Source: a virus. Taken from it: 64,000 nt of DNA. Below, in pieces: positions 13,526 through 57,452 of this stretch; within the stretch, counting starts at the first letter, position 1; each line of letters opens with the position of its first letter. The translations under genes were made by a program, and so were the position numbers. Location of the stretch: the IMG/VR virus record IMGVR_UViG_3300025073_000006. The stretch is one strand, 5' to 3'. The notes below the pieces were generated by a model that saw only the letters and a list, made by a program, of their open reading frames with translations, was not told the DNA's origin and made no database searches.

Positions 13526-13629
13526 GTTGGGCTCCGGGCAGAACGAGGGAGAGGCAGCGTGCGGGCACACGCGGCCCGCCACGCACTACGAATACCACGA
13601 CTACCGAGAATCGACGTGATACCGCGCGG

Positions 13630-16600
13630 TTACGGGTTATCGGCGCGCTTCAGTTCCCGCTTGTCGGCGCCCGCCTTCCCCGCCGCCCGCTGCGTGTCGC
13701 GGCGGCGAAGTTCCTGGGCTGTGTCGACGAGGATCGGCTTGGCGATGAAGAAGCCCACGAGTTCGTCGCCGGGGGTGCGGCCGACGCGTGGACCCTCCAA
13801 CGTCTCCCGGATGTAGGGGTGCGTCTTCCCGGGCGTCAACCCCAGCGCCTCGCGGGTCGCCAGCGTGCCCCGCACCAGGCGCTCGACGGGGCCGTGGTCG
13901 AAGGAGCGATCCAGCGCCTGCATCGTGGAGATTCCGCGCCCCATCCCAGGCAGGGCGTGGCCGAGGTTCTGAATCCCCCACCACCGCAGCTCGTTCCCTT
14001 GCCCCACGACCCAGCGGTAGGGGATGTCAACGTCGTACCGCTTCGCCGGGTCGGGTTCATCCACGGGCCGCACGCCCAGGAAGTCGTCGACGATCAGGCC
14101 GCCCGTGAGCGCGCGGTCCAGAGCGATGAACCAGGGCGGCACCGTGTTGAAGTTGCCGCTGTCGATGTTGTAGGAGGTCGACGGATCTACACGGGTCGCG
14201 GACACGATGGGAGCCTGCCACCAGGGCGGAAGCCGGTTGGCGACCCTCGCGGCCGCTTTGGGATCGTCGAAGGCCGACAGCGCCCAGGAGATGATCTCGC
14301 CCCACAGCGTGAAGCCATCGACCGCGGGCTGTTGGCGCGTCACGAACGCGAGGCCCAGGCGGCGCAGGGGGTCGGCCTCGACATCGACGCCGCGCACGTC
14401 CACCCGCACGCCGTCCTCGATGAAGCGGCGGTAGGCCACCATGAGCTGCCGCTCGTAGTTTTCGGGCCTGACGATCCGGTACTCGTCCTCCAGGTAGAGC
14501 TGCTGCATGTCGCGGATGAGCCGCACCTGACCCGCGACCCTGGACGGGTGGTTGAGCAGGGTCCACCAGAACAGGGTCTGGTTGGCGCGCTCGTAGGCGT
14601 AGAACAGGCTCACCTGCCGCATGACGCGCTGTTCGAAGTCGGTCATGTTGCCGTAGTCGTAGAGCGCCATGCGGGCGGCGGCAGCGGCTTCGGCCGGATC
14701 CGCGCCCTTGGCGAGGTGGTCGAAGAAGACGTGCAGGCGGCCGTAGTTGTCGATCGCGGTGTAGGCGCTGACGAGTTGCTCCTGCCACCACTCGAAGGGG
14801 AGCAGGACGTTCTCGATCCACGTCCTGTGCTCGCGCCGGATGTCGTCGGTGAGCGCGCGGGCGGACTCGGCGTGAACGAACGAGGAGTTGAGGCCGTAGC
14901 TACGTGCCATCTGTCGGAGCTGCTCGGCCGAGTAGACCCTGCCGTCCTTGGTCACCAGGACGCCCCGGCCCTCGATGGCCCGCTGTTCGCCCCAGAGCCC
15001 GATGAACACGTCCTTGACGAGCTTCTGCCTGGCCGGGTTGACCTGGGCACCGAAGACGGCGCGCAACCCGTCGCGCTGGAACCACTGCCACTGCCCGTCC
15101 AGTATGTTGCCGATGTAGCTGAAGACGTTCGGCACCAGGATACCGACGACCATGCCGACCTTGATCCGGCTGAACAGCTTAGGCACGGCGTCGAAGACGA
15201 CAAGCAGTGCGTTCTCGGCGTGAAGTGCTGCACGCGAACCCACCGCCGCACCGGGGGCGGGCTCACGAAGGGGGGCGATGGTCCCGACCACCTGGCCGGA
15301 CCTGCGCGCGGTGCCGACCGTAGCCGCCTCGTCGAGCGCCAGCTTGATCTGCTCCTGGAACATCTGCGGGACCATGATGCGGCGCCCGTCGAGGTCCATG
15401 GCCGTCCACAGCCCCTCGCCGCGCTTCCATCCCCAGCGGTCCATGAGGTCGTCGGCGTAGAGCAGCGCCGCCATGTCGGGGTGGCCGTGGAACGCGCCGG
15501 GCGGGCCAGCCAGCCGCCGCCTGTCGACGGTCGGCAGATCCTGGTGAGGGGCAGGCGGACCACGGCGGACCACGCTGCCCGTGTACTGGTCGAGCGCGGT
15601 GCTGTCGTTCCAGGCCACGCGGGCGTTGAGGGCCGCCACCACATGGTCGTAGAAGCGGTCACGCAGAGGCAGGCCGACGTCCACGTCCCGGCCGCGCTCC
15701 GGGCCGAGCAGGCCGTACTCGGCAAGTTCGTCGGCCATGCGCCCCAGGATGTCGTGGGCGCGCATCCGGACGATGGCCTCGGCGAGGGCGACGTTCGGGT
15801 CCATCTTGAACGTCCGCCGCCCCTGAACGGCGTCCTTGATGCGGCGCCAGAGTGACTTGTCCGCGAGCCCGGTCGCGCGTCCCATGCCGGCCATGATGTC
15901 GAACAGCGTGGGCGGGCGGTTGGGGAGCGGCACCTGGGGCCCGTGCTCGGGCAGCCAGCGGCCCTCATAGAAGGCCTTGTAGAGCGCGACCCGGTCGTAC
16001 CACTGGAGGGTCGCCAGGATGTTGGCTTCGCTCGACCCGGTGAGGATGATGGCGATCTCGTTGGCGCGCAGCTCGACGACGCGGACACGGTCACCCAGGC
16101 CCACGGCGATGCGGCTGACGGCGTCCTCCACGTCGAGCAGCTCGGCCGGCGCGAGGTTGACTGCCGTGCGCCCGCGGTAACTGTCGAGGATGCGGAGCGC
16201 TGCCTCTTCCTCGGGTGACAGGCCGTGACGCCAGGAGTCAAGGGCATCCTGGAGGGCCACGAGGCGGACGGGGTTGAGGATGGCGTCGACGTTCGGCGCG
16301 TCCCCCGATAGGGCCTGGTGTTGGGCAAACAGGATGTCGACGATCCCAACGTCGTGCCCGTTCCGGGCGACGGGCGGGGTGAGCTCGTTCGCGACGCCGC
16401 GCAGGCTCTCCATGATGGAGCCGACGTCCTTGAAGCCCATGCGGCTGTACCAGGGCCGCATGGCACGCTGTGCCCGCACCCCGTTGCGGACCCAGTCCTG
16501 GGCGCCGCCGAGCTCGCGCGAATGCCGCTCGACGATGTCCTGGACATGGGGGTCCGGGTAGCCGGCCATCGGGCGCTCGACGATGAACGCCTTCGTGAGC

Positions 16601-19600
16601 GTGTTCTTGAGCTTGGACGGGATGGCGCGACCCAGGACGTCGACGAACGCGGCGGCGGCGGACGGCGACACGCTGGCGGTGCGCCGGGTGCGGCGGGTTG
16701 CGGCGCCGGCCTCGACGTCCAGGGCCAGCTCCTGCAACCGGTTCACCTCGGCGAAGGTGATGGTGTCGAGGTTCGCTGCCGGGTCGAGCAGGCGCTCAGG
16801 GACCAGCGACCGGCCGTAGATGGTGGCGATGGGTTCCGACGCGAGTTGGCGGGCGTAGATGCGCAGGCCCGACTGCTGAGCGGGCGTCAGGCGCACACTG
16901 GCGTCGCCCTCCCGCGCCGTCGCCACCAGGTTGGCCGGGGTGTCGCCGAGCGCGCCCGCGAGCCGGCTCAGGGCGGCCTTGCGGACGCGGCCCAGCCTCG
17001 CCTTGGGGATGACGGTGCGCGGGGTCAACGTGACCATGTCGACGCCGATCATCCACTTACGGGCGTCCTCGACCACCATGTAGGCCGCGACCTTGCTGAC
17101 CAGCTCGTCGAGCGGGACCTGGTCGCCAACCTCGAGGCCGAGCTCCTGCAACAGCTCCTCGTCACGCACCGCGGTCCGCTTGGCCTCGCGCGCCTGTCCG
17201 GCCTTCCGGATCTTCTCCTCGACGGCGTACTCGGGCCCGGGGTCGACACGGACGATCGGGAAGTCGGGCCGTCCAGCCTCACCGATGACGACGAGGCGAC
17301 GCTGAGCCACGCCCTCGGGGCGGAGCAGGCGATCCCACGAGGCGCGAACCTCGGCGGGGAGCTCGACCTGCTGGCCCCGGAATTGCGCCCACGTCTCACG
17401 CAGGCGTTCACCGACCTCGGCGACCGCGCGCCCGAGCGCGCCCGTGGGCTGCATCCGGAGCTCGACGTAGCGACGGAAGGCGTCGGCGGCCTGGTCCATG
17501 CCGAGGCGCGTCAGCACCGGCTCGCCCGGGGTCGCGCGCAGGACGTTCTCGACGGTGAGCACGTCGGGTTCGATGCGCGTGCCGTTCATGTCCTCGACGT
17601 GGGTTTCGAGGCCGAGCGCCGTGGCGATCTGCGCGGGGCTCTCGCCAGCGTTGGCGCGCTGGTGGATGTCGTCGACCATGTGCTGGGGCAGGCTGTCGTA
17701 GTAGACGGCGAGCAGGGCGCGACCGTCCTCGCCGATGAACTCCTGGAGGAGGTGGCCGTTCTCGTGCAGGAGGGTGCGCCAGTCAGCGCCCCTGAAGAAT
17801 TCCAGGAGCCAGCGGGCGTTGCCGGGCGTGCCGGTGCCAGCGGCGCCGAAGAACTGGCCGGTGAGGGGGGCGCCCGGAGCGCGGCGGGAGTGGGTGATCC
17901 TGGGGTCACTGGTCGGCCTTTCGTTTGCGATGTCCTTGATCTGCTCTGGCTTGAACACCACGAACGAAATTGGCGCTCCCTCCGGCGACGGGTCGGTCAT
18001 GACGACGCTGTCGTAGCCCATGTGCTCGGCTGCTTTCACGAAGTCGTCTTGGTAGTTCATGTACCAGTTCTGGCTTCCCTCGTTGTGTGCGGCACGGGCC
18101 GCATCGATCTCGCGCGACCGCACCGGCATCGCCTCATCGAGCGCGGCCTTCAATGCCGGCGACTCACTAAGCAGCGTGTTCTCAATGTCGTACTCATCGA
18201 TGGCGTCGTAGTCGATGGCGTCGCGGAGGGCGTCAGGGTTGCCGACGAGTGGTTCGCCGGCCTGTTCGGCGAGGTCGTCCACCCACGCCTTGACCGCCGC
18301 GTCACTGCCGTACAACTTCGTCGCCTCGGCTGCGAGCCACTCACGGAAGTCGGAGTTCTCCATGTTGCGCATCTCGCCGTATCGGCCCAGAACTACACGC
18401 CCAGAGTCGTCATCCCAGATGGCCTCCTTCGCCACCGCCTCAAACACAGCCGGATCGTTGAAGTCGGCCGGGTTTTCCATCCGCAGGTACACCTCGTACC
18501 GACGCCCAACACCATCGCCGCCGCCCCGGTAGAAGTCAGCGGTGCGCGCATCTGGCGAGAAGAAGTAGCCGTAGGCAGTGTCCTGCTGCCTGAACTCATC
18601 AATGTTGTCGAACCGTGAGCCATGGAACGCGCGGACGATGGCGCCGCCTTCGGGGATGGCCTCGACGTCGTCGAAGTTGATGACCGGAAGACCGCGACTC
18701 CACTCCTGGAACTCCGGGGTGCTCGGGGCACGGCGACTGAACTGCGCCTGCCCCTGTTCCAGCACCGACCGCCTCATCTCGGGCGTGAGGCGGATCATGT
18801 GGACCGGATCCGCGATCCTGGTCGTCTGGGCGTAGTCGAGGCCCGCGAGGTCAGGGTCGCCGTCTTGCGCCGCCCGACTCACGTAGCTGGCGGCGTCTTG
18901 CTCGGTCCCGAATTGCGCAACGTCCTCACCCGTGGACTGCCTGAATACGTGCCAGTTTTCGGCGGGCATGTCACGAGTCAGGCCGATGTCGCCGACCTCG
19001 ACCCTCGCCCCCCACTTCGCCGCGTACTTGTTCATCCACGCGGGGAGCATCTTGTCGTAGAACCCGATCATCCCTTGGCCTCCGACCGTGAGGTCGGGGC
19101 CCTTCAGGGATCCGGACTGCTCGGGCGACGCCATGATGGCCTTCACCATGTCGCCGCCGATGACGCCCTTCATCTCGGTGGCGGACTTCGCGTCGTTGTG
19201 GACGACCCTGCCGTCCTTGATGGCCTCGATGACGATGCGGGACTCCGCGCCTGGGCCCATGCTGGCCGTTATCGCCGCCTGCTCCTTAGGGGTCAGCACA
19301 CTCCACGGCTCACCGTACTCGTCCATGGCTCGCGTCTCGCGAGCGTCGCGCCACAAGTAGGGCGACATCGGCTCTTTCCGCCACCGGATCTCGTCGACCA
19401 CCTTGCGCACCTGGTCTTCGTACCGCTTGACCTGCTGAACGCCGGTGGTCCAGGACACCGCGTCGTAGTCGTTTTCGGCGGCAAACCTCAGCATCCGCTT
19501 GAGGACCATCTCGTGCCAGGTCTTCGCGAAGGGGGCGTCTGGGACCCGGTTGGCGTTGAAGGCGTCGAACTCGTTCCTCGCCCACTCATCGCGGGCCGCC

Positions 19601-22600
19601 TCGCTGCGTTCCAACTGCCGATCCGCCATGGCGCGCAGATCATCCGGCGTCATCAGGCGGCCACCGAGGTAGAGGCCGGAGGGGACGTTCGGCGCTCCAC
19701 CAGCAAGTTCGAACCGCTGGTCGAACGCCCGACGAAGGGCGCTGATCGCCTCGCGTTTGCGGTCGAAGATATCACCGGCCGCGTCGGCCCACGCTTGCGT
19801 GTCACGCGTCCACTGTTCCACCTGCTCCGGTGGGGCGTCGCTCGGCATATTACGCGGCCGCGGCGTGGTGGTTTCGTACTGAGTGACCGCGTTGGCGGCG
19901 CTCTCGTAGGCCTCGATGGCGTCGAGTTGTGCCTGGTGCGCGGCTGTGCGCTCAGCCAGCGCGACAGTTTCCCTTGCCCGCAGCGCCTGCTCCATCTCGC
20001 CCGGCAACTCTTGTGTCTTGTACCCCTTCTCCCGCCCGGCCTGGTGCAGGTCGCTCTGCACCTCCTCGATGTGGAGGATCTTCTCGCCGTTGGGCCCCAC
20101 GCGGTCGTTGAACCGGACGTGGGCGAGGAGGTTCTCGCCTTCGCCGGAAGCGGGGAAGTGGGAGGAGCGGTACGGCGGCGGGCTTATGCGATCATCTTGC
20201 GCCTTCGCCAGTCGCAATTGCGCGTCCCTGTGCCCTTGCGGCCACACCCCGGTTTGGTTCGCGATTAACACACCCTCTTCCACTTGTCGCCTGAGGCGCG
20301 CGATCCGTAGGTCCATGTTCGCTTGCGTCATGCGTAGAAGCAACCCGCGCGGCATCTTGAACAGCAGCTCGCGGTAGTTCTCGCTGTCGCCGGACAGGAC
20401 GAGGCTGGCGTACTGTGCCGGCCCTTCCGACGGCGCGAACGTGCCATCTTGGAGCAACTCCGACACGTCGATCCGCTCGTGCTCACCGTCGCGGGTCCTG
20501 ACGTCGACGTATTCGTCCCAGTCCAGGCCGGTCCAGTTCAACGCGGCCGACTCAACCGCCGCCTCCAGTTGGGCGATCTCGTCGTCGGTCAGCCTCGCGT
20601 CCGGCACGTCCGACGTGTCTGTCGCGTCGGGTTCCGCGTCCTCAAGCGCGTCAACGGCCGCGTCGTGTTGATCATCGGCTCGCTGGATCAGGTCCTCCAG
20701 AAGCGAGCGAACCGGCTCCCACGTCGGGGAGTCACCATAGTTGTTTTCGATCGACACGGACTCGTCGAGGTAGTCCTTGGCGTTGTCGATGTCCTGCCAG
20801 CCCCTCCGTAGCGCCGCCACAGCATCCCGTCCGCGGCTCGCGGCTCGTCTCGCGTCTCGCGCCACCTTTCGTTCCACGTCGCGAGCCTTCTCGATCGCGT
20901 CTTCCATGTCCGACGGGTCGACGTTGTACCGGTCCATCAGCGCACTCGACGGCGTCCCCAGCACCACCTCCCCCAACTCGACCTTGTTCTTGTCCAGGTA
21001 CGCCAGCACCTCGGCCTTCGTGACCGTCTTCTTGCCCTCCAGGAACTCGTTGAGCCGCGTCCACTTCACCTCGTCGACCTTGACACCGGCCGGGCCAGCG
21101 AACGAGGCCACACCGCCCACACGGGCCGCGTGCGCCTCAGCCTCGGCGCCCTGGTTGAGCGGGTACGTGGCGAGCATCTTGCCGTCGCGCATCACCGGCT
21201 CGTTGCCCTTCATGACCGGCTTGCCGTCCTTCACCTCGGGGACGCGCTCCTTGACCTGCCACTTACCCAGCGCGCCACGAAGTTGGTCCGGGGTGAACCG
21301 GTCCTGCTTGAGGCCCTCGACGGCGCGGCGCAGGCCCGAGTACCAGATCGGGGCGGGGTCGACGCGGCGGCTGAACTGGGGACGCTGCCCATCAGGCCAG
21401 TAGCCCCACTCGTGAATCGAGTCCCCGTTGGTGAAGATGTCCGCCGCCTTCACCCGGGCGCTCAGGATCGTGTAATCGCCGCGCAGCGCCGATTCCCCGT
21501 GGTCCTTCGCGTAGGCCTTCGTGATGGTCACCCAGTCGCCCGGGTTGATGCGCCGCGCTTCGTTGGGCGGGGCCTGCCGTAGTCGCTCCAGCTCGGCGCC
21601 CAGGCGGTCGTACTCGCCCGGGTCGCTTGCGCCGCGCTTGAGGATCCGCGCCATCCGATGCTCGATGTCGCCGACCCGCTCTGCGTTGTCCTTCGGCACC
21701 GCGCGGTAGATGGTGACCTTGGCATCGGGCCGCCCCTTCATGGCGCGGGCTATCGCGAACGCCTGGCGGTCCAGAACCTCGTCACCGGTACCGTAGTAGC
21801 GGACACCGTTCGGCCCGTAGACATCATCTGGGTACACCACGCCGGCGCCGGTCAGGTCGTGTAGCGGCGCGCCCTCTTCTGGGCCAGTGGGCCGGTGCTC
21901 GCCAGCGTAGTCGTCCTCAGCGCGGCGGCTGAACCTGGCCCGCGTCCGCTCGCTCACGGTGTCCCCGCCCCTCACGTCGATCTCGGTCACCTCCATGTCG
22001 GCCCACTCGCCGGGCAGGGCGAGGTCAGGCAGGGGCGTCGTCGTCGCAGCCTGTTCCCGGGGCGCCATGGCCCCTGTGTCGGCCTGGGCGACCTCGGGCC
22101 TGTACCGACCCCTGAACCGCGCCAGGTCCAGCGCCGTGGCTCCGGTATACGTGGACTCCGGCAGCTCGTCCATGCCCACGCCGTCCCACGCGGCCCGATG
22201 ACCGGCCGTGACGACCTCGTCGTAGAGGCCTTCGCGGGGCGGCTCGGTGCCGAACGCGAGGGCGTCGAAGTTGCGGCGGCTGAACTGCGGCTGGCCCTCG
22301 GCGATGGACTCGCGCATGGCGTCGGTCACCGGCAGGTGGTGGACCTTCTCCGACCTGTCGTGGGCGAATGATGTGTCCTTGGCGATGGGGACCTGAATGT
22401 CCGTCATCCCAGGTTTCGCGTCCCACTTCGCCGCGTACCGCTTGAGGAACCCCGGGATCATGCCGTCGTACAGGTGTTCGGCCCATTTGCCGCCGATCTT
22501 GAGGTCGAGCCCGCTGATGGACGGGTAGCCTTGGCTCTCGTCCTCCTGGACGAGGTCGTAGTTGATGCGCTCCTCAGCGCCTGCGCGATCAACGAACCGC

Positions 22601-25600
22601 TCGGGCGCGAAGTCCGGGTGGTTCATGTCCAGCGTGTAGTCGCCGTTCGTGTTGATGATCGCGAAGGCGTCCGGATCGTCAGGGTGCTCGACGACCTCGA
22701 AGAGGCTGTTGCGGTCGTACTCGCGCCGCTTCACCTCCTCACGCAGTTTCGCTCCCGGTTTCTCACCGATGTACTCGTCGATCTCGTCGATGCCCACGGT
22801 TTTGTTGATGACCGTCTTGCCATCGTGGTCGTAGGCCAGAAGGGTTTCGCCATTCGGGTCGTAGGCGACCTCGCGCACCCGCTTCGCCAAGTCGTAGCGG
22901 TCCTGCTGCGTCTTCCCGGTCGTCCACGTCACGCCGTCATAGCCGTCCTCGACGGCCATTCGCAGCGCCACCTTCATCGTGAGCTCGTGCCAGTCCTGGG
23001 GAAAGGGGGTGGGGGGCACGCGCTCACTGTTCTTCACGGCGATTTCGCGCTGCATGTCCAGGCGTTCGCGGTTGAGCACCCTCGCCCCGTAGGATGGTGC
23101 CTCGTCGCGTCCGACTGTTCCCTTGCCGACCTTGACCTCGCGGCCATCGGGGTGGCTGACGATCCACTGGTACTCGGTCTCAGCGACGGAAAGGTCTTCT
23201 GGTTGAACCTCGACAGGAAGCCCGGTGTCGGCCTCGTCGCCGCGCACGCCCTTCTTCCGCACGTCCGCCGCCCAGTCCGACTGCACCTCCTCAACGTGCA
23301 GTAGCCGCTCGCCCTTGGGGCCGAGGCGGTCGTTGACGCGGAGGTGGGCGAGGAGGTTCTCACTCATGCCGCTGAAGTGGGGAGCCTGGTATGTCGGTTG
23401 CTGGTCGCGCCACTGGTTCTCACGGTCGCTGTTCACCCGTCCGAGGGCGTCGGCGATGGCGGCTTCACGGGTCGGGTGCAGCCCGTTCCACGGCCGGGCG
23501 TGGATCTGTCCCGGAGGCGTGATGCCCCACTGCCGGGACTCGGGCTGGTTCCGGTCGACGATCGGTTCGTAGCCCTCTGGCAGCGTGGTCAGCGGTTCGG
23601 GGGGCGTCCCTCCTGGGTTGAGGCGCAGCAGCACCTCCCGGTAGTTCTCGCCGCCCGGAAGAACGTGGGCGTCGTACTGCGGCTTCGTGATGGCACCGTA
23701 TGCGAGTTCCACTTCACGGCGCGCGTCCTGCCATTCGCTCGACGCGAGCAGGTAGTCCGTGAGCGCCTCCTCGAAGGCATACGCCTCTACATACTTGTTC
23801 AGGCGGTGCAGCAGGTCAGAGACCTCGCTGGGGCCGATCCTGGTCCCGTTGTTGAGGTCGATCATCGGCTGGGCGCCGTCCATGTAGACGCCCATGATTC
23901 GCGTGTCCTGCTGGCTCGGGTAGATCGCGATGCCCTCGACCGCGCTGCGCACCTTCGCCTCTGCCGCCACCTTCCGCCGATGAACCTCCTGCATCGCGGT
24001 CTTGGCGGCCTCGGCGCGAGGGCTCTTGCCGCCCAGCACCTTCTCCTCGATCTCCACGCGGTTCGACTTGACGAACGCCCGGACCTCCTCCCGGGTCACC
24101 ACGCCCCTTCCCGCCGCCCAGGCTTCGATGCCCAACCAGTCGAGTTCGGACTGCTTGACGCCCGGCCGCTTCTTCAGGCTGGCGACCAGCGACCGGCCCT
24201 TCATCTGCTTGGCGGCACCGAAGGCGTCGTCGACGCTGCGCTCGACCGCTGAGTAGAAGGTGTCCTGGGCGCGGCGGGAGAACAGGGCCGGGCCATACTC
24301 CACGTCGGCCTCGGCATAGAACCGCTCCCACTCGGCCCGCAGCTCGGGATCGGCGGCCATCAGGCGGGTGGCGATCTCGCCCTCCCAGAACCGCCGGTCG
24401 TGCGCAGGGTCGCGCATGAACCCGGGCTCGAGGCCGGCCGCGCGCTCGATGTCGGCGAGAATGTCAGCGGTGCCTATGTTCACGCTCGGCCCAACGTCGC
24501 TGCCCCACTCGTGAAGCGCCTTCAGCAAAGCGGGCCCGCTGACGCCGTCCGTCACCGGCATGGCGGCGATGGCCTCGTTGGTGCGCTGCAACCAACGGTC
24601 GTACTCGGGGCCACGGCGAGAGTACAGGATGCGTGGGTCGCCGGGGTCGAAGGTGCCCCGGTTGCTGATCGACTTGATCTGCGTGGGCTCGAATGCCGCC
24701 ACCACCATCGGGTTGCGCACGGTGAACTTGCCGAGTTGTTCGGCACTTGACGCGACGATGAGGCCATCATGCCCGGCGGCAATCTGCTTCTCGCGCCACG
24801 TCGACCACCACGCCGTGTCGCCGCCGTGGGCCTCGCGAAGCGAATTCCACTTCCCCTGCGTCAACACCAGAGGATTCGCGATCTTGAGATAGACCGGCAT
24901 CGTGCTGTCGCCGAACATGGAGGCGAACTCGCCGTCATCGGTGAACCAGAACCCCACCTTTGACGGCCCCTTGCCGGACTTCGCCCTGTCGAATGCGTCG
25001 ATATCTGCGGCGTCGGTTCCGTGGTACACCACCAGCGGCTGTCCCTTGTCGTCCACCACCTTGCTGTCGCCGAACCACCGCTTGAACCACGGCGAGTCCG
25101 TCTTGAGGCTGGTCCAGGCATCGCGGGCTCGCGCGAAGGGATCCTCGGCGGCCGCGTAGGCGATGATGGAGGCGTCCCCACCCAGCGCCGTCCGCGCCGC
25201 CTTGAACGTCGCCCCGGTCGATACCACGTTGTCGACCAGGAACACCCGGCCCTCGGGGACTGTGGCGTTCTCGCGGAGCCGCATCGTCATCTCGCTGGCG
25301 AGCATGTCGGGGCCGCCGGACACCTTGCGGTCGTAGCTCCGGGCCCTGGCCTCGCCCGTGAGCACGTCGGCCACAGTCGCCCCGGACCGCTCGGCGATGG
25401 CCTGGGCGAGCGCGAGGTTGACGGTCGTGTCGCCCTTCGACGACGGCACCGGCACCAGGACGGCGCCCTTCGGCACACGCGGGGCCAGCAAGTCGGCCGC
25501 CGCGTCGATGCTCTCGGGCGAGCCGTTCTTGATGGCGTGCGCGACCGTGCGGCCCTCGTTGTACGGGACGCCGATGATGGCGTCGTCGGGCAGTTCGGCG

Positions 25601-28600
25601 GCGTCGGCCCGCTTGCTGAACCTCGGGCTCGCCGCGACCCCGCCCGTCTCCTCGAACACGCCCTTCCGCGCGAGCCCGGCCTGCTGCCTGAGCGAGGCCA
25701 CGGCGAGCGCCTGGATGTCGGCCTCGGTGAGGTCCAGGTACTTCCGCAGCGTCCCGAACGTCCGGTAGATCCATGCCCGGATCTGTGCCAGCAGGCGCCG
25801 CACCAGGGGCGTGTCGGGGTGGAACTCGACGAGGTAGGCCAGCCGCTCGCGCCGCACCGCCAGGTCCCGAGCCGGGCCAGGGTCTCCATCGACGCCAGCC
25901 TCGGCCGTGCGCGCCACCTCGGCGGCGAGGACCGTGTTCTTCTTGAGCAGCGCGTCCACCCGGTCGATCAGCGCCAGTTCGGCCGCCTTACCACCGAGCA
26001 TCGTCGCCATGCCGGCGTGAACACCGACCTCGTGGAGCAGGACGCGGGCCACCTCGCCCTCGGACATCTCGCGCACGTTGAGGTAGGTCTTGCCCTCGTG
26101 AAACACGCCCTTGACGCCGCGCATGTCCGACGACTTGAGCCCATCCGGCAGGGTGTCGAGGTCGTCGACAAGGACCACCTGCTCGGCCTCGAGCAACGCC
26201 TGGGCGTCTTGGCCGAACCGCTCGGTGATGATGGCGCGGGCCTGCTCGGCGGACTCCATGCGAGGTCCGAACTCCCAGGGCCGGTTGCGCGCGACGAAGC
26301 CGATGCCTCGACGCTGCTCGGCGAGGCCCATCCTCCCCGGCTGAACCGGCCCCTGCACGTCGGCCACACGGAACTGCACGTCGTCGAAGTGCCCTGCCAG
26401 CGACGTGATCTCGCCCGCCTCCAGCCGCCTCCACGCCGTCACCTCGTCGTAGGCCAGCATCATGCGGGCGGTGTCGTCGTCGATGATGCCGGTGCGGACC
26501 ATCTCCTCGAAGGCGTTCAGCCTCTCGGCGTAGCCCTGGGACGCCCGCATCTCCAACGACTCGGGGTCGACTTTGTCAAGCCGGGCCCGCCAGTTGTCGA
26601 TGGTCTGGCTGCGGGCCACCTTCGCCCGCTCGCCGAACTCGGCCAGCGTCTTGCGGACCGTCGCCTCGTCCTGGCCGGTGAGGTGCCGGATCAGGGTGGT
26701 GGCGTTCTCGCGCTGCGCCTTCGACATGACGTCGAGCGGGTTCATGCCCTTGCGCACGGCGTCCCGCATGACCTTGGCGGTGACGTGGTTGGCGGCGTCG
26801 AGGGGGTCGCGGATGGTGATCTTCGCCCGTCCGGCGGCGTCCTCGGCGTCGAGGAGGCGCCCGATCTGGACGGCCTCGGGAGCGAGCCCTGCCCATGCCC
26901 CCTCCAGCGCAGCCGTCATGCCCGCCCCGCGCAGATCGCGGTACAGTCCCGCGCCAACCCAGCCGCGACGGATCCCGGAGCCGAGGCCACGCAGCGCGAT
27001 GTCCTCGCCGGGGAACACGAAGTCGGCGATGATCCCGGAGGCGTTCAGGAACTTCCACTGCCAGGAGTCCTCGGCGAGGCCCATCCCGCGCCCGATGTTC
27101 TGCATCCCGAACATCCAGCCGGTTTCGCCCGTCTCGGTGCCCGCCAGAACGCGGGCGGTCCAGCCAGCCGACTCGAAGTCGCGCTGCGGCACGTAGTCGG
27201 ACGGGCCCCACCGCTGAAGCCCCCAGTCGACCCCTGCCAGGACCACCTCCTCAGCCATCGCCGAGGGCACACCGAAGGGGACGCGCATGGCCCAGCCGAA
27301 CGTCGTCTCGCCCCGGGCGCTCATGCTCACGGCCCCAAGGAACTCCTCGGCGTAGTCGAGCGCAGCGCCACCCGTCCGCTCGTAGGCCTCCCGGTTCGCG
27401 TCCACGCCGGCCTTCATCGAGTCGACGGTGATGGCCTGCTCGAGCGTGGCCTTGGGCAGGTCTGCCAGCGTGGCGCGCCGCCAGAACCGATTCCACACGG
27501 CGGCGACGGCCTCGTCGCGGTCGGCATCCGGCCCCTTCTTGCCCGCCGCCCGCAACGTCGGGTCGCTCGTGGCGTGGATGCCGTCCAGGTCGGCGATGAG
27601 TTCGAGCACGAGCGGGGAGGCGTCCTCGCCATCACGACGACCATCGGCCACGACGCGGGGCATCGTCGGCGCCTCGCCACCCACCCACACCCCCGACGGC
27701 AGGTTGCGGATCTCCAACGCGGGGAACAGCGGCGCCAGGTCCGCCGTCGTCTCGGCCGCCTCAATAATTTCCGCGTTCGTGAGCAGGTCGTTGTGCCGCG
27801 ACCCGTCGCGCTGGAGCTGTTCGTAGGCCTCCCGCGCGTCCTCGGGCAGCAACTTCGCCACGACCGGCGAGACGGGGCCCTCGACGGCGCGCACCAGGTC
27901 CCGGACGGCCTTGGGCGCCATCACGTTGGGCAGGAAACCCCATTCGGGATCCGCGTCTGCCGCGACCTCGCCCGCCACGGTGATCGTGCGCAGCTCGACA
28001 GGCTTGAGCCCCTCCTTGATCTCGGCCAGCGCCTCGTCCTTCCGGGGGTGGTTCCACGGCGCGATGGGCTCCTCGCCACGCGCCCGTCTCGCCATCCCCT
28101 CTTCTGAGTCGAGGATGCTGCTCCAGGTGTCGCGGATGACGCTCGCGATGGCCGATCCCTCGGGGATTTCTGCGCCCTCGGGCGGTTCGAGGCGATCCCA
28201 TGTGGCCCTTTTGATGGCGGCGAGTACGGCGCGGGGGCCGTCCCGGAGATTGTCCTCGTAGTCGGCCGCCCTCTCGATGCCGGCCGCCGTTGCCTTCTCC
28301 GCGGTCCACACCTCGCCTTCCGGCCGCCCGGTTTTCACCATGCCCGGCGCCATCGCACGCAGGGCCACATACCCGGCGTTGTCGCGCGGTGTCCCCTTGG
28401 CCTCGAAGGCGTCGAGCAGGAAGCCTGGCAGCGTCTCCGCGCCCTCAGCGTAGCTGATGTCGCGCTGAATCCGCTCCCACTCCTCACGCCTGACTGTCTC
28501 CTCGTCCAGGCTGCGGTCGGATTCGAGGCGCGTCTTCACCCTGGCCTCGGCGTAGTCTTCCAGCGCCGCCCTCAACTCGGGCTCGGACTTCGCGATGGGC

Positions 28601-28821
28601 GGGTCGCCGGGCGCCTCCTGCCGTTCGATGGGGCTGAAGTCGTCATCGTCGTCATCGTCGTCGTCGACGCCCACGTCAAGGGGCGCGACCGCGGCCCGAT
28701 CCATGGGTTCGTCGATCGGCTCGGCGCGCATCCGGTCGACCATCGCCTCAGCCTCGGAGCGAGGGAGCTTCGTGCGGGCCATGAGGTCGCGGATCGTGCG
28801 CTCGCGGTCGGTCGATGCCAT
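13630..28821 (-). CDS. Giant polyvalent virion (ejection) protein, 5,063 aa
   Basis: Single uninterrupted ORF. HEVGVH (26017-26034), ComF-like PRTase (VFLVDNVVSTGATF, 25204-25245), two ART-like modules (YHG 25018-25026, FHG 18619-27), duplicated module with H[VI]EEVQSD (23272-98, 20047-73), HENGH (17752-66), poly-Asp run (28639-65), C-terminal region with TM-like segment. Confidence 0.9.
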   Translation of the reverse strand: MASTDRERTIRDLMARTKLPRSEAEAMVDRMRAEPIDEPMDRAAVAPLDVGVDDDDDDDDDFSPIERQEAPGDPPIAKSEPELRAALEDYAEARVKTRLESDRSLDEETVRREEWERIQRDISYAEGAETLPGFLLDAFEAKGTPRDNAGYVALRAMAPGMVKTGRPEGEVWTAEKATAAGIERAADYEDNLRDGPRAVLAAIKRATWDRLEPPEGAEIPEGSAIASVIRDTWSSILDSEEGMARRARGEEPIAPWNHPRKDEALAEIKEGLKPVELRTITVAGEVAADADPEWGFLPNVMAPKAVRDLVRAVEGPVSPVVAKLLPEDAREAYEQLQRDGSRHNDLLTNAEIIEAAETTADLAPLFPALEIRNLPSGVWVGGEAPTMPRVVADGRRDGEDASPLVLELIADLDGIHATSDPTLRAAGKKGPDADRDEAVAAVWNRFWRRATLADLPKATLEQAITVDSMKAGVDANREAYERTGGAALDYAEEFLGAVSMSARGETTFGWAMRVPFGVPSAMAEEVVLAGVDWGLQRWGPSDYVPQRDFESAGWTARVLAGTETGETGWMFGMQNIGRGMGLAEDSWQWKFLNASGIIADFVFPGEDIALRGLGSGIRRGWVGAGLYRDLRGAGMTAALEGAWAGLAPEAVQIGRLLDAEDAAGRAKITIRDPLDAANHVTAKVMRDAVRKGMNPLDVMSKAQRENATTLIRHLTGQDEATVRKTLAEFGERAKVARSQTIDNWRARLDKVDPESLEMRASQGYAERLNAFEEMVRTGIIDDDTARMMLAYDEVTAWRRLEAGEITSLAGHFDDVQFRVADVQGPVQPGRMGLAEQRRGIGFVARNRPWEFGPRMESAEQARAIITERFGQDAQALLEAEQVVLVDDLDTLPDGLKSSDMRGVKGVFHEGKTYLNVREMSEGEVARVLLHEVGVHAGMATMLGGKAAELALIDRVDALLKKNTVLAAEVARTAEAGVDGDPGPARDLAVRRERLAYLVEFHPDTPLVRRLLAQIRAWIYRTFGTLRKYLDLTEADIQALAVASLRQQAGLARKGVFEETGGVAASPRFSKRADAAELPDDAIIGVPYNEGRTVAHAIKNGSPESIDAAADLLAPRVPKGAVLVPVPSSKGDTTVNLALAQAIAERSGATVADVLTGEARARSYDRKVSGGPDMLASEMTMRLRENATVPEGRVFLVDNVVSTGATFKAARTALGGDASIIAYAAAEDPFARARDAWTSLKTDSPWFKRWFGDSKVVDDKGQPLVVYHGTDAADIDAFDRAKSGKGPSKVGFWFTDDGEFASMFGDSTMPVYLKIANPLVLTQGKWNSLREAHGGDTAWWSTWREKQIAAGHDGLIVASSAEQLGKFTVRNPMVVAAFEPTQIKSISNRGTFDPGDPRILYSRRGPEYDRWLQRTNEAIAAMPVTDGVSGPALLKALHEWGSDVGPSVNIGTADILADIERAAGLEPGFMRDPAHDRRFWEGEIATRLMAADPELRAEWERFYAEADVEYGPALFSRRAQDTFYSAVERSVDDAFGAAKQMKGRSLVASLKKRPGVKQSELDWLGIEAWAAGRGVVTREEVRAFVKSNRVEIEEKVLGGKSPRAEAAKTAMQEVHRRKVAAEAKVRSAVEGIAIYPSQQDTRIMGVYMDGAQPMIDLNNGTRIGPSEVSDLLHRLNKYVEAYAFEEALTDYLLASSEWQDARREVELAYGAITKPQYDAHVLPGGENYREVLLRLNPGGTPPEPLTTLPEGYEPIVDRNQPESRQWGITPPGQIHARPWNGLHPTREAAIADALGRVNSDRENQWRDQQPTYQAPHFSGMSENLLAHLRVNDRLGPKGERLLHVEEVQSDWAADVRKKGVRGDEADTGLPVEVQPEDLSVAETEYQWIVSHPDGREVKVGKGTVGRDEAPSYGARVLNRERLDMQREIAVKNSERVPPTPFPQDWHELTMKVALRMAVEDGYDGVTWTTGKTQQDRYDLAKRVREVAYDPNGETLLAYDHDGKTVINKTVGIDEIDEYIGEKPGAKLREEVKRREYDRNSLFEVVEHPDDPDAFAIINTNGDYTLDMNHPDFAPERFVDRAGAEERINYDLVQEDESQGYPSISGLDLKIGGKWAEHLYDGMIPGFLKRYAAKWDAKPGMTDIQVPIAKDTSFAHDRSEKVHHLPVTDAMRESIAEGQPQFSRRNFDALAFGTEPPREGLYDEVVTAGHRAAWDGVGMDELPESTYTGATALDLARFRGRYRPEVAQADTGAMAPREQAATTTPLPDLALPGEWADMEVTEIDVRGGDTVSERTRARFSRRAEDDYAGEHRPTGPEEGAPLHDLTGAGVVYPDDVYGPNGVRYYGTGDEVLDRQAFAIARAMKGRPDAKVTIYRAVPKDNAERVGDIEHRMARILKRGASDPGEYDRLGAELERLRQAPPNEARRINPGDWVTITKAYAKDHGESALRGDYTILSARVKAADIFTNGDSIHEWGYWPDGQRPQFSRRVDPAPIWYSGLRRAVEGLKQDRFTPDQLRGALGKWQVKERVPEVKDGKPVMKGNEPVMRDGKMLATYPLNQGAEAEAHAARVGGVASFAGPAGVKVDEVKWTRLNEFLEGKKTVTKAEVLAYLDKNKVELGEVVLGTPSSALMDRYNVDPSDMEDAIEKARDVERKVARDARRAASRGRDAVAALRRGWQDIDNAKDYLDESVSIENNYGDSPTWEPVRSLLEDLIQRADDQHDAAVDALEDAEPDATDTSDVPDARLTDDEIAQLEAAVESAALNWTGLDWDEYVDVRTRDGEHERIDVSELLQDGTFAPSEGPAQYASLVLSGDSENYRELLFKMPRGLLLRMTQANMDLRIARLRRQVEEGVLIANQTGVWPQGHRDAQLRLAKAQDDRISPPPYRSSHFPASGEGENLLAHVRFNDRVGPNGEKILHIEEVQSDLHQAGREKGYKTQELPGEMEQALRARETVALAERTAAHQAQLDAIEAYESAANAVTQYETTTPRPRNMPSDAPPEQVEQWTRDTQAWADAAGDIFDRKREAISALRRAFDQRFELAGGAPNVPSGLYLGGRLMTPDDLRAMADRQLERSEAARDEWARNEFDAFNANRVPDAPFAKTWHEMVLKRMLRFAAENDYDAVSWTTGVQQVKRYEDQVRKVVDEIRWRKEPMSPYLWRDARETRAMDEYGEPWSVLTPKEQAAITASMGPGAESRIVIEAIKDGRVVHNDAKSATEMKGVIGGDMVKAIMASPEQSGSLKGPDLTVGGQGMIGFYDKMLPAWMNKYAAKWGARVEVGDIGLTRDMPAENWHVFRQSTGEDVAQFGTEQDAASYVSRAAQDGDPDLAGLDYAQTTRIADPVHMIRLTPEMRRSVLEQGQAQFSRRAPSTPEFQEWSRGLPVINFDDVEAIPEGGAIVRAFHGSRFDNIDEFRQQDTAYGYFFSPDARTADFYRGGGDGVGRRYEVYLRMENPADFNDPAVFEAVAKEAIWDDDSGRVVLGRYGEMRNMENSDFREWLAAEATKLYGSDAAVKAWVDDLAEQAGEPLVGNPDALRDAIDYDAIDEYDIENTLLSESPALKAALDEAMPVRSREIDAARAAHNEGSQNWYMNYQDDFVKAAEHMGYDSVVMTDPSPEGAPISFVVFKPEQIKDIANERPTSDPRITHSRRAPGAPLTGQFFGAAGTGTPGNARWLLEFFRGADWRTLLHENGHLLQEFIGEDGRALLAVYYDSLPQHMVDDIHQRANAGESPAQIATALGLETHVEDMNGTRIEPDVLTVENVLRATPGEPVLTRLGMDQAADAFRRYVELRMQPTGALGRAVAEVGERLRETWAQFRGQQVELPAEVRASWDRLLRPEGVAQRRLVVIGEAGRPDFPIVRVDPGPEYAVEEKIRKAGQAREAKRTAVRDEELLQELGLEVGDQVPLDELVSKVAAYMVVEDARKWMIGVDMVTLTPRTVIPKARLGRVRKAALSRLAGALGDTPANLVATAREGDASVRLTPAQQSGLRIYARQLASEPIATIYGRSLVPERLLDPAANLDTITFAEVNRLQELALDVEAGAATRRTRRTASVSPSAAAAFVDVLGRAIPSKLKNTLTKAFIVERPMAGYPDPHVQDIVERHSRELGGAQDWVRNGVRAQRAMRPWYSRMGFKDVGSIMESLRGVANELTPPVARNGHDVGIVDILFAQHQALSGDAPNVDAILNPVRLVALQDALDSWRHGLSPEEEAALRILDSYRGRTAVNLAPAELLDVEDAVSRIAVGLGDRVRVVELRANEIAIILTGSSEANILATLQWYDRVALYKAFYEGRWLPEHGPQVPLPNRPPTLFDIMAGMGRATGLADKSLWRRIKDAVQGRRTFKMDPNVALAEAIVRMRAHDILGRMADELAEYGLLGPERGRDVDVGLPLRDRFYDHVVAALNARVAWNDSTALDQYTGSVVRRGPPAPHQDLPTVDRRRLAGPPGAFHGHPDMAALLYADDLMDRWGWKRGEGLWTAMDLDGRRIMVPQMFQEQIKLALDEAATVGTARRSGQVVGTIAPLREPAPGAAVGSRAALHAENALLVVFDAVPKLFSRIKVGMVVGILVPNVFSYIGNILDGQWQWFQRDGLRAVFGAQVNPARQKLVKDVFIGLWGEQRAIEGRGVLVTKDGRVYSAEQLRQMARSYGLNSSFVHAESARALTDDIRREHRTWIENVLLPFEWWQEQLVSAYTAIDNYGRLHVFFDHLAKGADPAEAAAAARMALYDYGNMTDFEQRVMRQVSLFYAYERANQTLFWWTLLNHPSRVAGQVRLIRDMQQLYLEDEYRIVRPENYERQLMVAYRRFIEDGVRVDVRGVDVEADPLRRLGLAFVTRQQPAVDGFTLWGEIISWALSAFDDPKAAARVANRLPPWWQAPIVSATRVDPSTSYNIDSGNFNTVPPWFIALDRALTGGLIVDDFLGVRPVDEPDPAKRYDVDIPYRWVVGQGNELRWWGIQNLGHALPGMGRGISTMQALDRSFDHGPVERLVRGTLATREALGLTPGKTHPYIRETLEGPRVGRTPGDELVGFFIAKPILVDTAQELRRRDTQRAAGKAGADKRELKRADNP
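17925..18640 (-). other. ART-like module 2 inside the giant protein
   Basis: VRAFHGSRFDNIDEF....GYFFSPD...ADFY...YEVYLRMENP...GYDSVVM....SFVVFKPEQIKDIAN. Confidence 0.45.
24660..25035 (-). other. ART-like module 1 (ART-PolyVal-like pattern) inside the giant protein
   Basis: VVYHGT..ADIDAFD....GFWFTDD...ASMFG..VYLKIANP...GHDGLIV....VVAAFEPTQIKSISN. Same pattern as module 2. Confidence 0.45.
25145..25470 (-). other. ComF/type-I phosphoribosyltransferase-like domain inside the giant protein
   Basis: VLVPVPSSKG...LALAQAIAERSG......R.......M.........EGRVFLVDNVVSTGATFKAARTAL. The PRPP-loop-like acidic-hydrophobic stretch followed by STGAT is typical of type I PRTases. Confidence 0.6.
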
Positions 28822-31662: not shown

Positions 31663-31665
31663 GAC

Positions 31666-32460
31666 CTACTCCGACGCGGGCGTGGTGCGGTACAGGCTGT
31701 TCGTCGCGGAGGTGTCCCGCCCGGTGAACGCCCTCATGTAGAAGATCTGCATCGTGGGGTCGGTGTCGCCCCAGTCCACCTTTTTGACGTGCTGCGCGGC
31801 GGCGACCTGGCCCGCGAGCCCGGCGACCTGGCCGATCCCCTGCGCGATAGCCTGCCTGCGCTCCTTGACGCGCTCCGACTTGTAGGCGGTGGCGCTGTCG
31901 GCGCGGTCGAGCTGGCGGCCCATCTCCTGGAGGCGGGCCATGGTGTTGGCCTGGTTGACGGCCAGCGCCGCCTCCTGCGCGGGGCGCGCGGCCCCCTCCT
32001 CCATCGTCCGGATGTCGGCGGCCGAGGTCGTGCCGCCCGTCGCGGCGATGCGTGCGCCGGCCGCCTGCTGGGCCTCGCGCTGGATGCCGCCGGCGCGAGC
32101 GAGCCCCTGCCTGTGCTGCTCCTCGATGATCTTGGCCTGCGGGGTGGCAGCGAGTTGGCCCTTGGCGTGGGCGGCGTTCAGCTTTTCCAGCTCGGCGTTG
32201 TTGCGGCGGTCCTGGTCGGTGTTCCACGCTGCCGCGGCGATCTGCGCGGTGGTCGCCGCGGCCGAGACGCCGAGGCCGATCCCGAGCTGCTTCGCGTACT
32301 GCTGGCGAAGCGCGACGTCGGGGCTGACGGCAGCGCGGTCCATCGGGGACAGCTTCTGCGGCGTGACCCCCGCCCCTGGCGCGATCGTGAACGACTGCGG
32401 CGCGTTGGGGTCCTCGTACATGATGGAGTAGGGATTCTGGGAGGGGCTGCTTGTTGCCAT
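31666..32460 (-). CDS. Internal virion protein (264 aa), Ala/Gln-rich
   Basis: Track ORF. Position and composition only. Confidence 0.7.
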   Translation of the reverse strand: MATSSPSQNPYSIMYEDPNAPQSFTIAPGAGVTPQKLSPMDRAAVSPDVALRQQYAKQLGIGLGVSAAATTAQIAAAAWNTDQDRRNNAELEKLNAAHAKGQLAATPQAKIIEEQHRQGLARAGGIQREAQQAAGARIAATGGTTSAADIRTMEEGAARPAQEAALAVNQANTMARLQEMGRQLDRADSATAYKSERVKERRQAIAQGIGQVAGLAGQVAAAQHVKKVDWGDTDPTMQIFYMRAFTGRDTSATNSLYRTTPASE

Positions 32461-32509
32461 GGTGTCATCCTACTTCCGTCAGGGGTGCGCCACCCGATAC
32501 CGCCAGGTG

Positions 32510-32911
32510 TCAGCCGCCGAACACGCCGCCATACCACGAGTCGAACTGGCCCCCGCCCGCGGCCCGGAGCATGGGGTCGTTGCCGCCACTCGCTGCCGCG
32601 ACGGGCCTCTTGAACGCGACCGCCTCAGCCTCCTTGGCGAGCCGGTTCTGCTCGTAGGTGGCCTGCCGCGCCAGCCTGTCGCGCTTCGCCTGGGCGGCCT
32701 CAGCCTCGTTGTAGGCGTCCTTGGCGCGCTTGGCCCCGAGGAGCCCGCCCGCGACGGCCCCGGCGACGGCGCCGACGACGCCACCCACAACGGTCCCGAT
32801 GGGCCCCGCCGCGGTTCCCACGGTCGCGCCGAGCGCCGCACCCTGCCCGGCACCGCTCAGCGCGCCCTGCGTGGCTCCTGCCCGTGCTGCCTCCTGTTCT
32901 TCCGTCGGCAT
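32510..32911 (-). CDS. Glycine-zipper membrane protein (133 aa)
   Basis: AGGAGG upstream of the ATG. GxxxG-rich hydrophobic core GPIGTVVGGVVGAVAGAVAGGLLGA. Confidence 0.65.
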   Translation of the reverse strand: MPTEEQEAARAGATQGALSGAGQGAALGATVGTAAGPIGTVVGGVVGAVAGAVAGGLLGAKRAKDAYNEAEAAQAKRDRLARQATYEQNRLAKEAEAVAFKRPVAAASGGNDPMLRAAGGGQFDSWYGGVFGG

Positions 32912-57451: not shown

Positions 57452-57452
57452 G

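Follow-up and report, generated by a model that had tools for sequence, protein, structure and literature searches.

The giant gene

The window analyzed here, a stretch of 64,000 nucleotides (nt) from the IMG/VR virus record IMGVR_UViG_3300025073_000006 that is meant at its full length throughout, carries at 13630-28821(-) an open reading frame (ORF) for a protein of 5,063 amino acids (aa), referred to as the giant in the following. The protein is composed of modules (M0a to M8c, Table 1), several of which end in a recurrent short sequence joint, and it belongs to a family of very large proteins of uncultured viruses. The frame starts with ATG and contains 5,063 codons and no internal stop. 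At a GC content of about 70% the window holds 145 ORFs of at least 150 aa, many long ones being spurious for this reason; the giant ORF is not among these. The GC1/GC2/GC3 values are close to 0.70/0.46/0.89 in each of its 500-codon blocks, its ATG follows the stop codon of the upstream gene after 12 nt and a GAGG sequence is located 8-11 nt 5' of this ATG. This operon-like packing supports that the giant is a member of an operon.

The same 5,063-aa product was called in two other contigs, L003 (ENA ERZ28564033) and L005 (JGI 3300025012), at a DNA identity of 99.98-100%. The two originate from separate samples and pipelines (ENA and JGI), and the element was also found in JGI 3300002093. By the sample names (in ENA, ANAN16-1_SAMN03203xxx) the source may be a study of a groundwater aquifer; the contigs are 57-71 kb in size and all derive from short-read metagenomes of related samples. 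Two further contigs, L004 and L006, carry apparent versions of 3,360 aa and 4,023 aa, which are 100% identical to the window on either side of 100-bp gaps with a 55-nt overlap. These were dropped as real variants and are read as scaffold gaps; the assembly breaks fall inside the giant ORF at about 23705-23759 and 25706-25760 of the window. An earlier note made from the letters of this DNA alone had described one uninterrupted 15.2-kb frame and had asked for a check on frameshifts or stops splitting it. The uniform GC3 and the identical call in independent assemblies bear out the frame, no such frameshift or stop is present in the independent short-read assemblies and, as far as short-read assemblies tell, the 5,063-aa ORF is a genuine single gene.

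The giant does not contain a single cysteine, while 50 would be expected from the other genes of the window (P ~1e-22). The codons for cysteine (TGY) are absent in frame and occur 203 and 63 times in the two remaining frames. Cysteine is also rare in the relatives introduced below, with counts of 0-9 in 150 listed relatives and 24 IMG/VR giants. Two other very large phage proteins are likewise free of cysteine, i.e., Bcep22 gp75 (4,602 aa; L034, 27951-41759), which is unrelated in sequence, and the giant of the Nostoc phage Nsp-JY18 (4,012 aa; L033, 5287-17325), which is related in part only.

It is extremely improbable that the ORF is an assembly chimera or that several genes were fused by sequencing errors. 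In favor of such an artifact it might be argued that some assemblies break within the ORF and that every assembly is a short-read metagenome from related samples. Against it stand the identical calls from ENA and JGI, the even GC3 along the whole ORF, the frame-specific absence of TGY codons and the fact that relatives of 4,482 and 5,508 aa keep the module order (M0b, M0c, ART ... M8a-c).

A conserved viral scaffold with exchangeable cargo

An exhaustive HMMER search with aa 3864-5063 resulted in 712 relatives, 89 of them at E <1e-30. The best are giants themselves, overall 2,000-7,833 aa in length (e.g., 4,482, 5,508 and 7,058 aa), that match at their extreme C-terminus. Modules were mapped on the best 150 of the 712 relatives by single-sequence phmmer, which detected M8c in 149, M8b in 46, M8a in 39, an ART module in 22, the big module in 12 and M0b in 11 of these. 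Moreover, a profile of the M8c core identified 24 viral contigs in IMG/VR (22-75 kb, GC 45-67%). In all 24 the core is located 372-494 aa from the end of a giant ORF that encodes 0-2 cysteines; complete ORFs comprise about 2,300-3,500 aa, and several that run off the end of the contig are longer than 3,700 aa. Using family hidden Markov models (HMMs), the order M8a-M8b-M8c was found in 21 of these 24 relatives and M8b-M8c in the other three, which are 5'-cut, and M0b was detected at about residue 440-810 in 10 of the IMG/VR giants. In four of the IMG/VR contigs (L015, L016, L023 and L027; 34-37 kb) the giant ORF, with 2,300 to more than 3,700 aa, accounts for 20-30% of the contig sequence.

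Judged by these profile matches, the scaffold of the family is an N-terminal region with M0b, followed by variable cargo and then by M8a-M8b-M8c, M0b thus being part of the conserved scaffold; the giant of the window corresponds to this scaffold plus about 2,600 aa of cargo. The cargo varies between members: Pfam domains detected in 12 relatives comprise ART-PolyVal (5), C-5 DNA methylase (2), PBECR5, DUF7178, DUF3990 and HATPase. Complete ORFs of 991 and 1,258 aa consist of M8b and M8c only; that these are truncated gene calls was ruled out by an in-frame stop upstream. The family comprises at least 700 clusters at 50% identity, spans a GC content of 45-70% and is known from metagenomes only. 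It has no match in the profile libraries of PHROGs v4, Pfam and NCBIfam or by tblastn against GenBank phages; the PADLOC library was not searched. A tblastn search with aa 2401-5063 against GenBank phages returned no Bcep22-type record, a word-based search with the C-terminal 1,416 aa yielded no relatives, and DNA nearly identical to the window is absent from GenBank phages. Scans of GTDB genomes with M8c and with the terminase gave no relative and so no clue to the host, and the other genes of the window have no homologue at BLAST level in the 24 IMG/VR viral loci.

The family-defining domain M8c carries the core IDN..R...DY..LTDFEK...MFYSY.R.N about 380-490 aa from the C-terminus. It was modeled with good confidence (pLDDT 86.7, pTM 0.85) as a mainly helical domain, which the model suggests to be an undescribed fold; a profile search of PDB sequences returned nothing meaningful. 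The C-terminal region of about 1,400 aa had been noted earlier for a stretch resembling a transmembrane segment. The hydrophobic stretch is real, aa 4554-4574 (15100-15162) being the sole hydrophobic window of the giant (Kyte-Doolittle 1.64), but it is not an evident membrane anchor: the stretch corresponds to a conserved motif, K.G.T.G..PN..Y..GN, which in the confident model would form a helix hairpin, with two helices separated by a short break at Pro-Asn.

A recurrent joint between the modules

Every cargo module ends in the tetrapeptide [FYH]S[RK]R, with eight sites in all, which is FSKR at aa 1068, YSRR at aa 1400, FSRR at aa 1514, 2180, 2297, 2483 and 3361, and HSRR at aa 3644. FSRR occurs five times in the giant compared to 0.05 expected, and the broader pattern [FYHW]S[RK]R eight times compared to 0.21 expected, with a maximum of four in 5,000 shuffles. 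The pattern is not present in any of the other 46 predicted proteins of the window (12,146 aa). The joints divide the giant into nine pieces of 12.7-157 kDa. In relatives, joints are located at module ends that were mapped independently, with eight in P0121, six in P0122, two in P0127 and six, as LYSR[AS], in P0163; P0123 has the variant PLFQ five times. Relatives that share the joint are only 46-48% identical. Eight proteins with together 54 [FYH]SR sites, of which some lie within M8, gave the consensus R-x-L-[FY]-S-R-[RA]-A-[P/E/D], which is followed by a sequence rich in Ala, Pro and acidic residues.

The serine of the joint is encoded by AGC, AGT, TCT and TCC. The use of both AGY and TCN codons argues for selection at the protein level and disfavors a scar of DNA recombination. 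A Tat-type SRR signal was ruled out since no hydrophobic region follows the sites. Nor is the joint common to ART-PolyVal proteins at large: those that stand alone and are unrelated usually stop exactly at the aromatic position without SRR, which suggests that SRR is an added, lineage-specific joint. The joint would most likely serve as a processing site. Should cutting occur there, a protease acting in trans is at least as likely as M8a.

The big module

The two copies of a module of about 0.7-0.9 kaa that had been reported earlier are real paralogues: in a self-comparison aa ~1546-2190 and 2571-3364 align in BLAST segments down to E 7e-16. For copy 1 (M3) more than 368 homologues were found (E to 6e-57, coverage up to 99%); the 120 homologues listed are all unannotated and about 560-810 aa in size. 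In an alignment of 108 sequences some 40 positions are invariant, with many charged or polar residues among them, in the motifs GENYRE, N.LAH.R.NDR, L.VEE.QSD, K, TTG..R and YD. Both M3 and M6 keep every invariant position and, at 33% identity, are as distant from each other as from the stand-alone proteins. The big module is enzyme-like, with a putative activity. The stand-alone proteins stop about 15 residues past KGQPLF, which aligns with GQPQF-SRR in the giant, the aromatic residue of the joint thus being the last conserved residue of the big module.

In two T7-like contigs of about 34 kb (L007 and L008), which encode a T7-family portal (PF12236), a T7 scaffold (PF05396), a capsid protein and a nozzle, the homologue of the big module follows the nozzle and two smaller proteins. 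The gene slot of these stand-alone homologues is the internal-virion-protein slot. It is followed by a protein of about 950 aa and further large ORFs at the position of the T7 tail fiber, without family annotation. That the giant is a fusion with this ~950-aa protein of small podoviruses was rejected as no BLAST or HMM similarity was found. The AlphaFold model of the big module (pLDDT 72, core 80-93) matches in BFVD solely uncharacterized proteins of uncultured phages, several of which carry ART-PolyVal, LPD or lysozyme domains.

Effector-type domains and histidine motifs

The giant contains at least two distinct domains of effector or enzyme type, i.e., two ART-PolyVal domains, a sub-threshold phosphoribosyltransferase-like (PRTase-like) stretch, an HExxH domain and the enzyme-like big modules. 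Both ART-like modules proposed earlier (24660-25035 and about 17925-18640) score above the Pfam gathering threshold of ART-PolyVal (PF18760, 31.2 bits), ART1 at aa 1257-1387 with E 1.6e-22 and 81.2 bits and ART2 from aa 3393 with E 1.5e-13 and 52.2 bits; for the second the domain is confirmed, and a start at 17925 is 2 nt out of frame. The suggestion of a ComF-like PRTase at 25145-25470 found only weak support. The stretch contains a phosphoribosyl-pyrophosphate (PRPP) loop, VFLVDNVVSTGAT, and its best matches in the PDB are all PRTases, with E 0.1 over this loop, but all scores stay below threshold: PF00156 matches with 14.9 bits at a cutoff of 26.3, an NCBIfam model with E 0.002, far below its cutoffs. 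The loop has D-N instead of D-D, and family scores are weak.

Two histidine motifs had been pointed out. HEVGVH at 26017-26034 is found as described, at aa 930-935, and all four relatives with M0c keep it as HE[VA]G[VA]H, but its spacing is HExxxH and not that of the canonical zincin motif. HENGH at 17752-17766 was verified by translation as aa 3686-3690 in M8a. In a 14-sequence alignment (A6) its HExxH is invariant, as is D183 further downstream, and G.[ED]QAA has a conserved acidic residue. This supports, by conservation, that HENGH is a true HExxH motif; it is retained in 45 of 90 distinct family members. No peptidase model in Pfam or NCBIfam and no peptidase among PDB sequences matched the histidine regions of M8a and M0c, and for M8a these three sources gave no match of any kind. 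Similarly, translation located the nine-residue poly-Asp run expected at 28639-28665 as DDDDDDDDD at aa 53-61. The PHROG 2579 match of M5 covers about aa 2417-2482, carries the PHROGs label "ParB C-terminal domain" and has no solved relative. Over 68 aa, M5 also shares 57% identity with hypothetical proteins encoded in 34.7-kb Caudoviricetes genomes from spring water (MW202462.1, 26471-26674).

Genomic neighborhood

The phage structural block that holds the giant lies downstream of the terminase gene (46513-48132), and the window has a match to a PHROG "internal virion protein" at 36014-38188. The closest relative, P0121, shows the same upstream gene order with products of 128, 246 and 915 aa. 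The 942-aa gene that had been called an internal-virion gene beside the giant is present and ends 12 nt before its ATG; the internal-virion identity was not borne out, as it has no family match. Likewise, the presumed tail-fiber gene on the other side is a real gene (739 aa; GC2 0.68, GC3 0.91), which matches no family and is fiber-like by composition only.

Table 1. Positions of the giant, its modules and joints, and the co-oriented flanking genes in the window.
Feature	Position	Strand	Description
Upstream genes (133, 264 and 942 aa)	28834..32911	-	co-oriented with the giant; gaps of 49, 3 and 12 nt
133-aa protein	32510-32911	-	19 PHROGs matches (tape-measure, tail-lysin, internal-virion), all via a glycine-zipper-like segment
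Giant ORF	13630..28821	-	ATG start; 5,063 aa; 560 kDa; pI 5.1; zero Cys; ~24% of the window
M0a, aa 1-420	27562..28821	-	N-terminal region with poly-Asp run; matched by 0/150 listed relatives
M0b, aa 421-800	26422..27561	-	Gly/Trp-rich, N-proximal; in 11/150 listed relatives and many IMG/VR giants
M0c, aa 801-1071	25609..26421	-	carries HEVGVH; terminal joint FSKR
PRTase-like, aa 1072-1240	25102..25608	-	PRPP-loop motif VFLVDNVVSTGAT; every score sub-threshold
ART1, aa 1241-1403	24613..25101	-	ART-PolyVal; terminal joint YSRR
M2, aa 1404-1517	24271..24612	-	small module, no function named; terminal joint FSRR
M3 (big module copy 1), aa 1518-2183	22273..24270	-	homologous to stand-alone proteins of ~700-800 aa; terminal joint FSRR
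M4, aa 2184-2300	21922..22272	-	small module, common to P0121 and P0122; terminal joint FSRR
M5, aa 2301-2486	21364..21921	-	PHROG 2579 domain; terminal joint FSRR
M6 (big module copy 2), aa 2487-3364	18730..21363	-	33% identity to copy 1, with insertions; terminal joint FSRR
M7 (ART2), aa 3365-3647	17881..18729	-	ART-PolyVal with insertion; terminal joint HSRR
M8a, aa 3648-3900	17122..17880	-	conserved domain with HENGH
M8b, aa 3901-4540	15202..17121	-	conserved scaffold domain, no function named
M8c, aa 4541-5063	13633..15201	-	family-defining C-terminal domain; holds the hydrophobic hairpin 15100-15162
Eight joints [FYH]S[RK]R	17881..25620	-	25609-25620, 24613-24624, 24271-24282, 22273-22284, 21922-21933, 21364-21375, 18730-18741, 17881-17892
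739-aa Gly/Ala-rich protein	11363..13582	-	directly downstream of the giant; 22% Gly, 20% Ala; GGAGG-type repeats

The 133-aa protein was dropped as a lysin, which its PHROGs matches would have suggested, because Pfam gives only a sub-threshold glycine zipper (Gly-zipper_Omp, E 0.0014); by its sequence it may be a membrane-active candidate of the ejection module. PHROGs and Pfam searches on the neighbors of the giant in L023 and on most structural genes of the window returned no matches, and no tRNA genes were found in the window.

Elsewhere in the window, a C-5 cytosine DNA methylase gene is located on the opposite-strand arm (2723-4219(+), Pfam 9e-28), a domain which two relatives of the giant carry internally. 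A DUF5675 protein (8643-9305(-), Pfam 1.4e-22) is encoded near the strand switch at about 7117/7121. A 140-aa product (about 53087-53509(-)) shows a faint match to Acb2_Tad1_hairpin, a family of anti-CBASS/Thoeris sponges, and adjoins an RNase_T exonuclease gene (53511-54524). The replication module encodes a DUF927 protein of primase/helicase type (55412-57571) and a SNF2/ResIII helicase (58237-59817), both on the minus strand.

Proposed function and alternative explanations

On balance, the giant is probably a virion-associated polyvalent effector built on a conserved viral scaffold, which would be packaged and ejected and possibly processed at its joints. The earlier proposal of a polyvalent protein with many modules, which a phage-like element encodes in its late or structural block, agrees with the two ART-PolyVal domains, the cargo of its relatives, the terminase and the gene resembling an internal virion protein. 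The giant would be made late and be co-translated with its neighbors from one operon. Its constant parts, the N-terminal region with M0b and the unit M8a-M8b-M8c of about 1,400 aa, may serve to build the protein into the particle and/or the ejection apparatus. The exchangeable cargo of about 2,600 aa between them consists of the HExxxH module, the PRTase-like stretch with ART1, two small modules, two big modules, the PHROG 2579 domain and the second ART. The packaged protein would leave the capsid unfolded along with the DNA, which the complete absence of cysteine fits, and in the host cell it would deliver ADP-ribosyltransferase and other activities. Cutting at the joints R-x-L-[FY]-S-R-[RA]-A would then produce separate pieces from the 560-kDa chain. 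That the protein is packaged, ejected and cleaved, and by which protease, is inferred; that the giant is packaged and injected is the best available reading of its gene position, the homology of one module to proteins of the internal-virion slot, the domain content and analogy. More tentatively, and with considerable doubt, the joints might constitute a dedicated processing code by which one 560-kDa polyprotein gives rise to nine or more effectors, in the capsid or after ejection, the protease being the M8a HExxH domain or acting in trans.

Several observations weigh against this interpretation. The label "ejection protein" is derived from gene position only, as the big module and M8c are unlike solved folds: in Foldseek comparisons with the PDB neither the model of the big module (best E 0.065) nor that of M8c (best E 1.3, TM ~0.1) has a neighbor. 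The M8 unit has no relative among about 50,700 GenBank phage records or PLSDB plasmids. The podovirus-type assignment of the phage made in the earlier note is putative. Regarding the joints, P0163 has six of them together with a dead M8a (LLEQNAQ) and P0127 has two without any HExxH, which does not support M8a as an obligatory protease acting in cis; a significant association between HExxH and arrays of joints was not found either (Fisher p 0.68). Only a small subclade has the strict joint array, and all checked members (the giant of the window, P0121, P0122, P0127, P0163 and P0170) carry ART-type modules; the joint could be a lineage-specific linker that was inherited with the cassettes. Finally, some polyvalent virion proteins, e.g., N4 vRNAP, are packaged unprocessed (cited in PMC5512222).

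The last points also bear on the explanation that the giant is packaged and acts as an intact chain of beads on a string, with the joints as flexible hinges or docking peptides, which we regard as rather unlikely. The joints of P0127 and P0163, the precedent of the N4 vRNAP type, the Ala/Pro/acidic, linker-like sequence after the joint and the fact that no prohead protease is recognizable among the head-module genes of the window by PHROGs and Pfam would agree with it. However, a plain hinge needs no invariant aromatic-Ser-Arg core that is maintained through both serine codon families and in relatives of 46-48% identity. Moreover, retention of HExxH tracks cargo length, the median cargo being 1,934 aa in HExxH-positive and 1,225 aa in HExxH-negative members (p 6e-4), although this test ignores phylogeny; 11 compact forms of about 2,100-2,400 aa, with less than about 930 aa before M8a, lack HExxH, and a few similarly short members retain it. 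Quite improbable is the alternative that the M8 unit is an external tail part, such as a hub, a needle or a fiber anchor, with the cargo displayed on the particle or acting at the cell surface. The neighboring Gly/Ala-rich, fiber-like gene, the dissimilarity of M8c to any known ejection protein and the spread of the family over very diverse viral backbones would be in line with an external part, but the ART-PolyVal, PRTase-like, DNA-methylase and PBECR RNase modules of the cargo would depend on substrates present in the cytoplasm; enzymes of these classes act on NAD+, PRPP, DNA and RNA. An external position is further opposed by the stand-alone homologues of the big module, which occupy the internal-virion slot ahead of the fiber, and by the cysteine-free composition, which is also found in the virion-packaged giant of the Bcep22 type.

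Significance

What happens in the first minutes of infection, e.g., anti-restriction and host take-over, is decided by phage proteins that accompany the DNA. The family described here represents a plug-in architecture, with exchangeable enzymes of as many as several thousand residues placed between two constant scaffold parts, and it is widespread in uncultured viruses. While polyvalent proteins as a kind are already known, new here are the architecture at the level of the family, the undescribed fold at the C-terminus, the big module as an enzyme-like unit, the fixed joint and a composition free of cysteine; the scaffold, the recurrent joint and the total absence of cysteine had been missed in the earlier note. 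The fixed joint offers a concrete, mutable sequence for asking whether such giants are processed, a question that was raised and left unanswered in the literature consulted on polyvalent proteins (PMC5512222). The big module and M8c are well-defined targets for structural and functional work. The cysteine-free composition may reflect a convergent constraint on very large virion proteins: zero cysteine in three giants that are unrelated or partly related, one lineage of which is found in virions, hints at a general constraint on passage through the tail. If the joints were indeed a processing code, this would be a polyprotein strategy of double-stranded DNA phages comparable to that of RNA viruses, and ejection-associated proteins would gain new classes in the big module and the M8c fold.

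Comparison with known systems

Polyvalent proteins of phages and conjugative elements were described by Iyer, Burroughs, Anand, de Souza and Aravind (2017; PMC5512222), who also proposed processing of these proteins by peptidases. Like the proteins covered there, the giant combines many effector-type domains in one chain, with ART-PolyVal occurring twice and a PRTase-like stretch beside ART, it has an embedded HExxH domain of the kind proposed to process the chain, and a DNA methylase and a PBECR5 RNase are found in its relatives. Unlike them, the giant matches ART-PolyVal only and has no match to MPTase-PolyVal, LPD, MuF, ParB and other domains of that repertoire, and its constant part consists of an N-terminal module and a previously undescribed unit of about 1,400 aa at the C-terminus, with the cargo in between. 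The head-targeting domain MuF (PF04233), which defines MuF toxins, was not matched in Pfam and PHROGs scans of the whole giant. Moreover, the giant has fixed joints, while the passages of PMC5512222 that were consulted describe no cleavage-site motif, and the article does not use the word "linker."

The earlier note had cited Bcep22-like podoviruses as a precedent. Giant proteins of this type are indeed virion proteins, as shown by mass spectrometry for JC1 gp69 (4,515 aa; PMC9144972), but no homology was detected: Bcep22 gp75 was matched neither by phmmer with the 14 modules of the window nor by the HMMs of the big module, M8a, M8b and M8c, and it is an analogue only. As an analogue, the "DarB-like" giants of this group (gp75, 4,602 aa; JC1 gp69) resemble the giant in size, in occupying about 22-24% of the genome, in the lack of cysteine and in being placed at the end of the morphogenesis module (PMC9144972).

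A partial relative is found in the Nostoc phage Nsp-JY18, whose 4,012-aa "lysin" (PP438410.1) has the big module at aa 1565-2729, directly followed by an HExxH domain of the M8a type (E 6e-13). It contains no cysteine and takes about 25% of the 47.6-kb genome, and related proteins exist in Microcystis and Dolichospermum phages. In contrast to the giant, it has no detectable M8b or M8c and no [FY]SRR joints (one YSR).

For the T7 proteins gp14, gp15 and gp16, neither Foldseek comparisons of the big module and M8c with the PDB nor profile searches of the PDB revealed a likeness, the presence of T7 ejectosome entries in that PDB copy being unconfirmed. The stand-alone homologues of the big module occupy the slot equivalent to that of these proteins, between the nozzle with the small proteins and the fiber, in contigs with a T7-family portal and scaffold. 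Like T7 gp16, the giant would be a large, late component of the virion with enzymatic activity.

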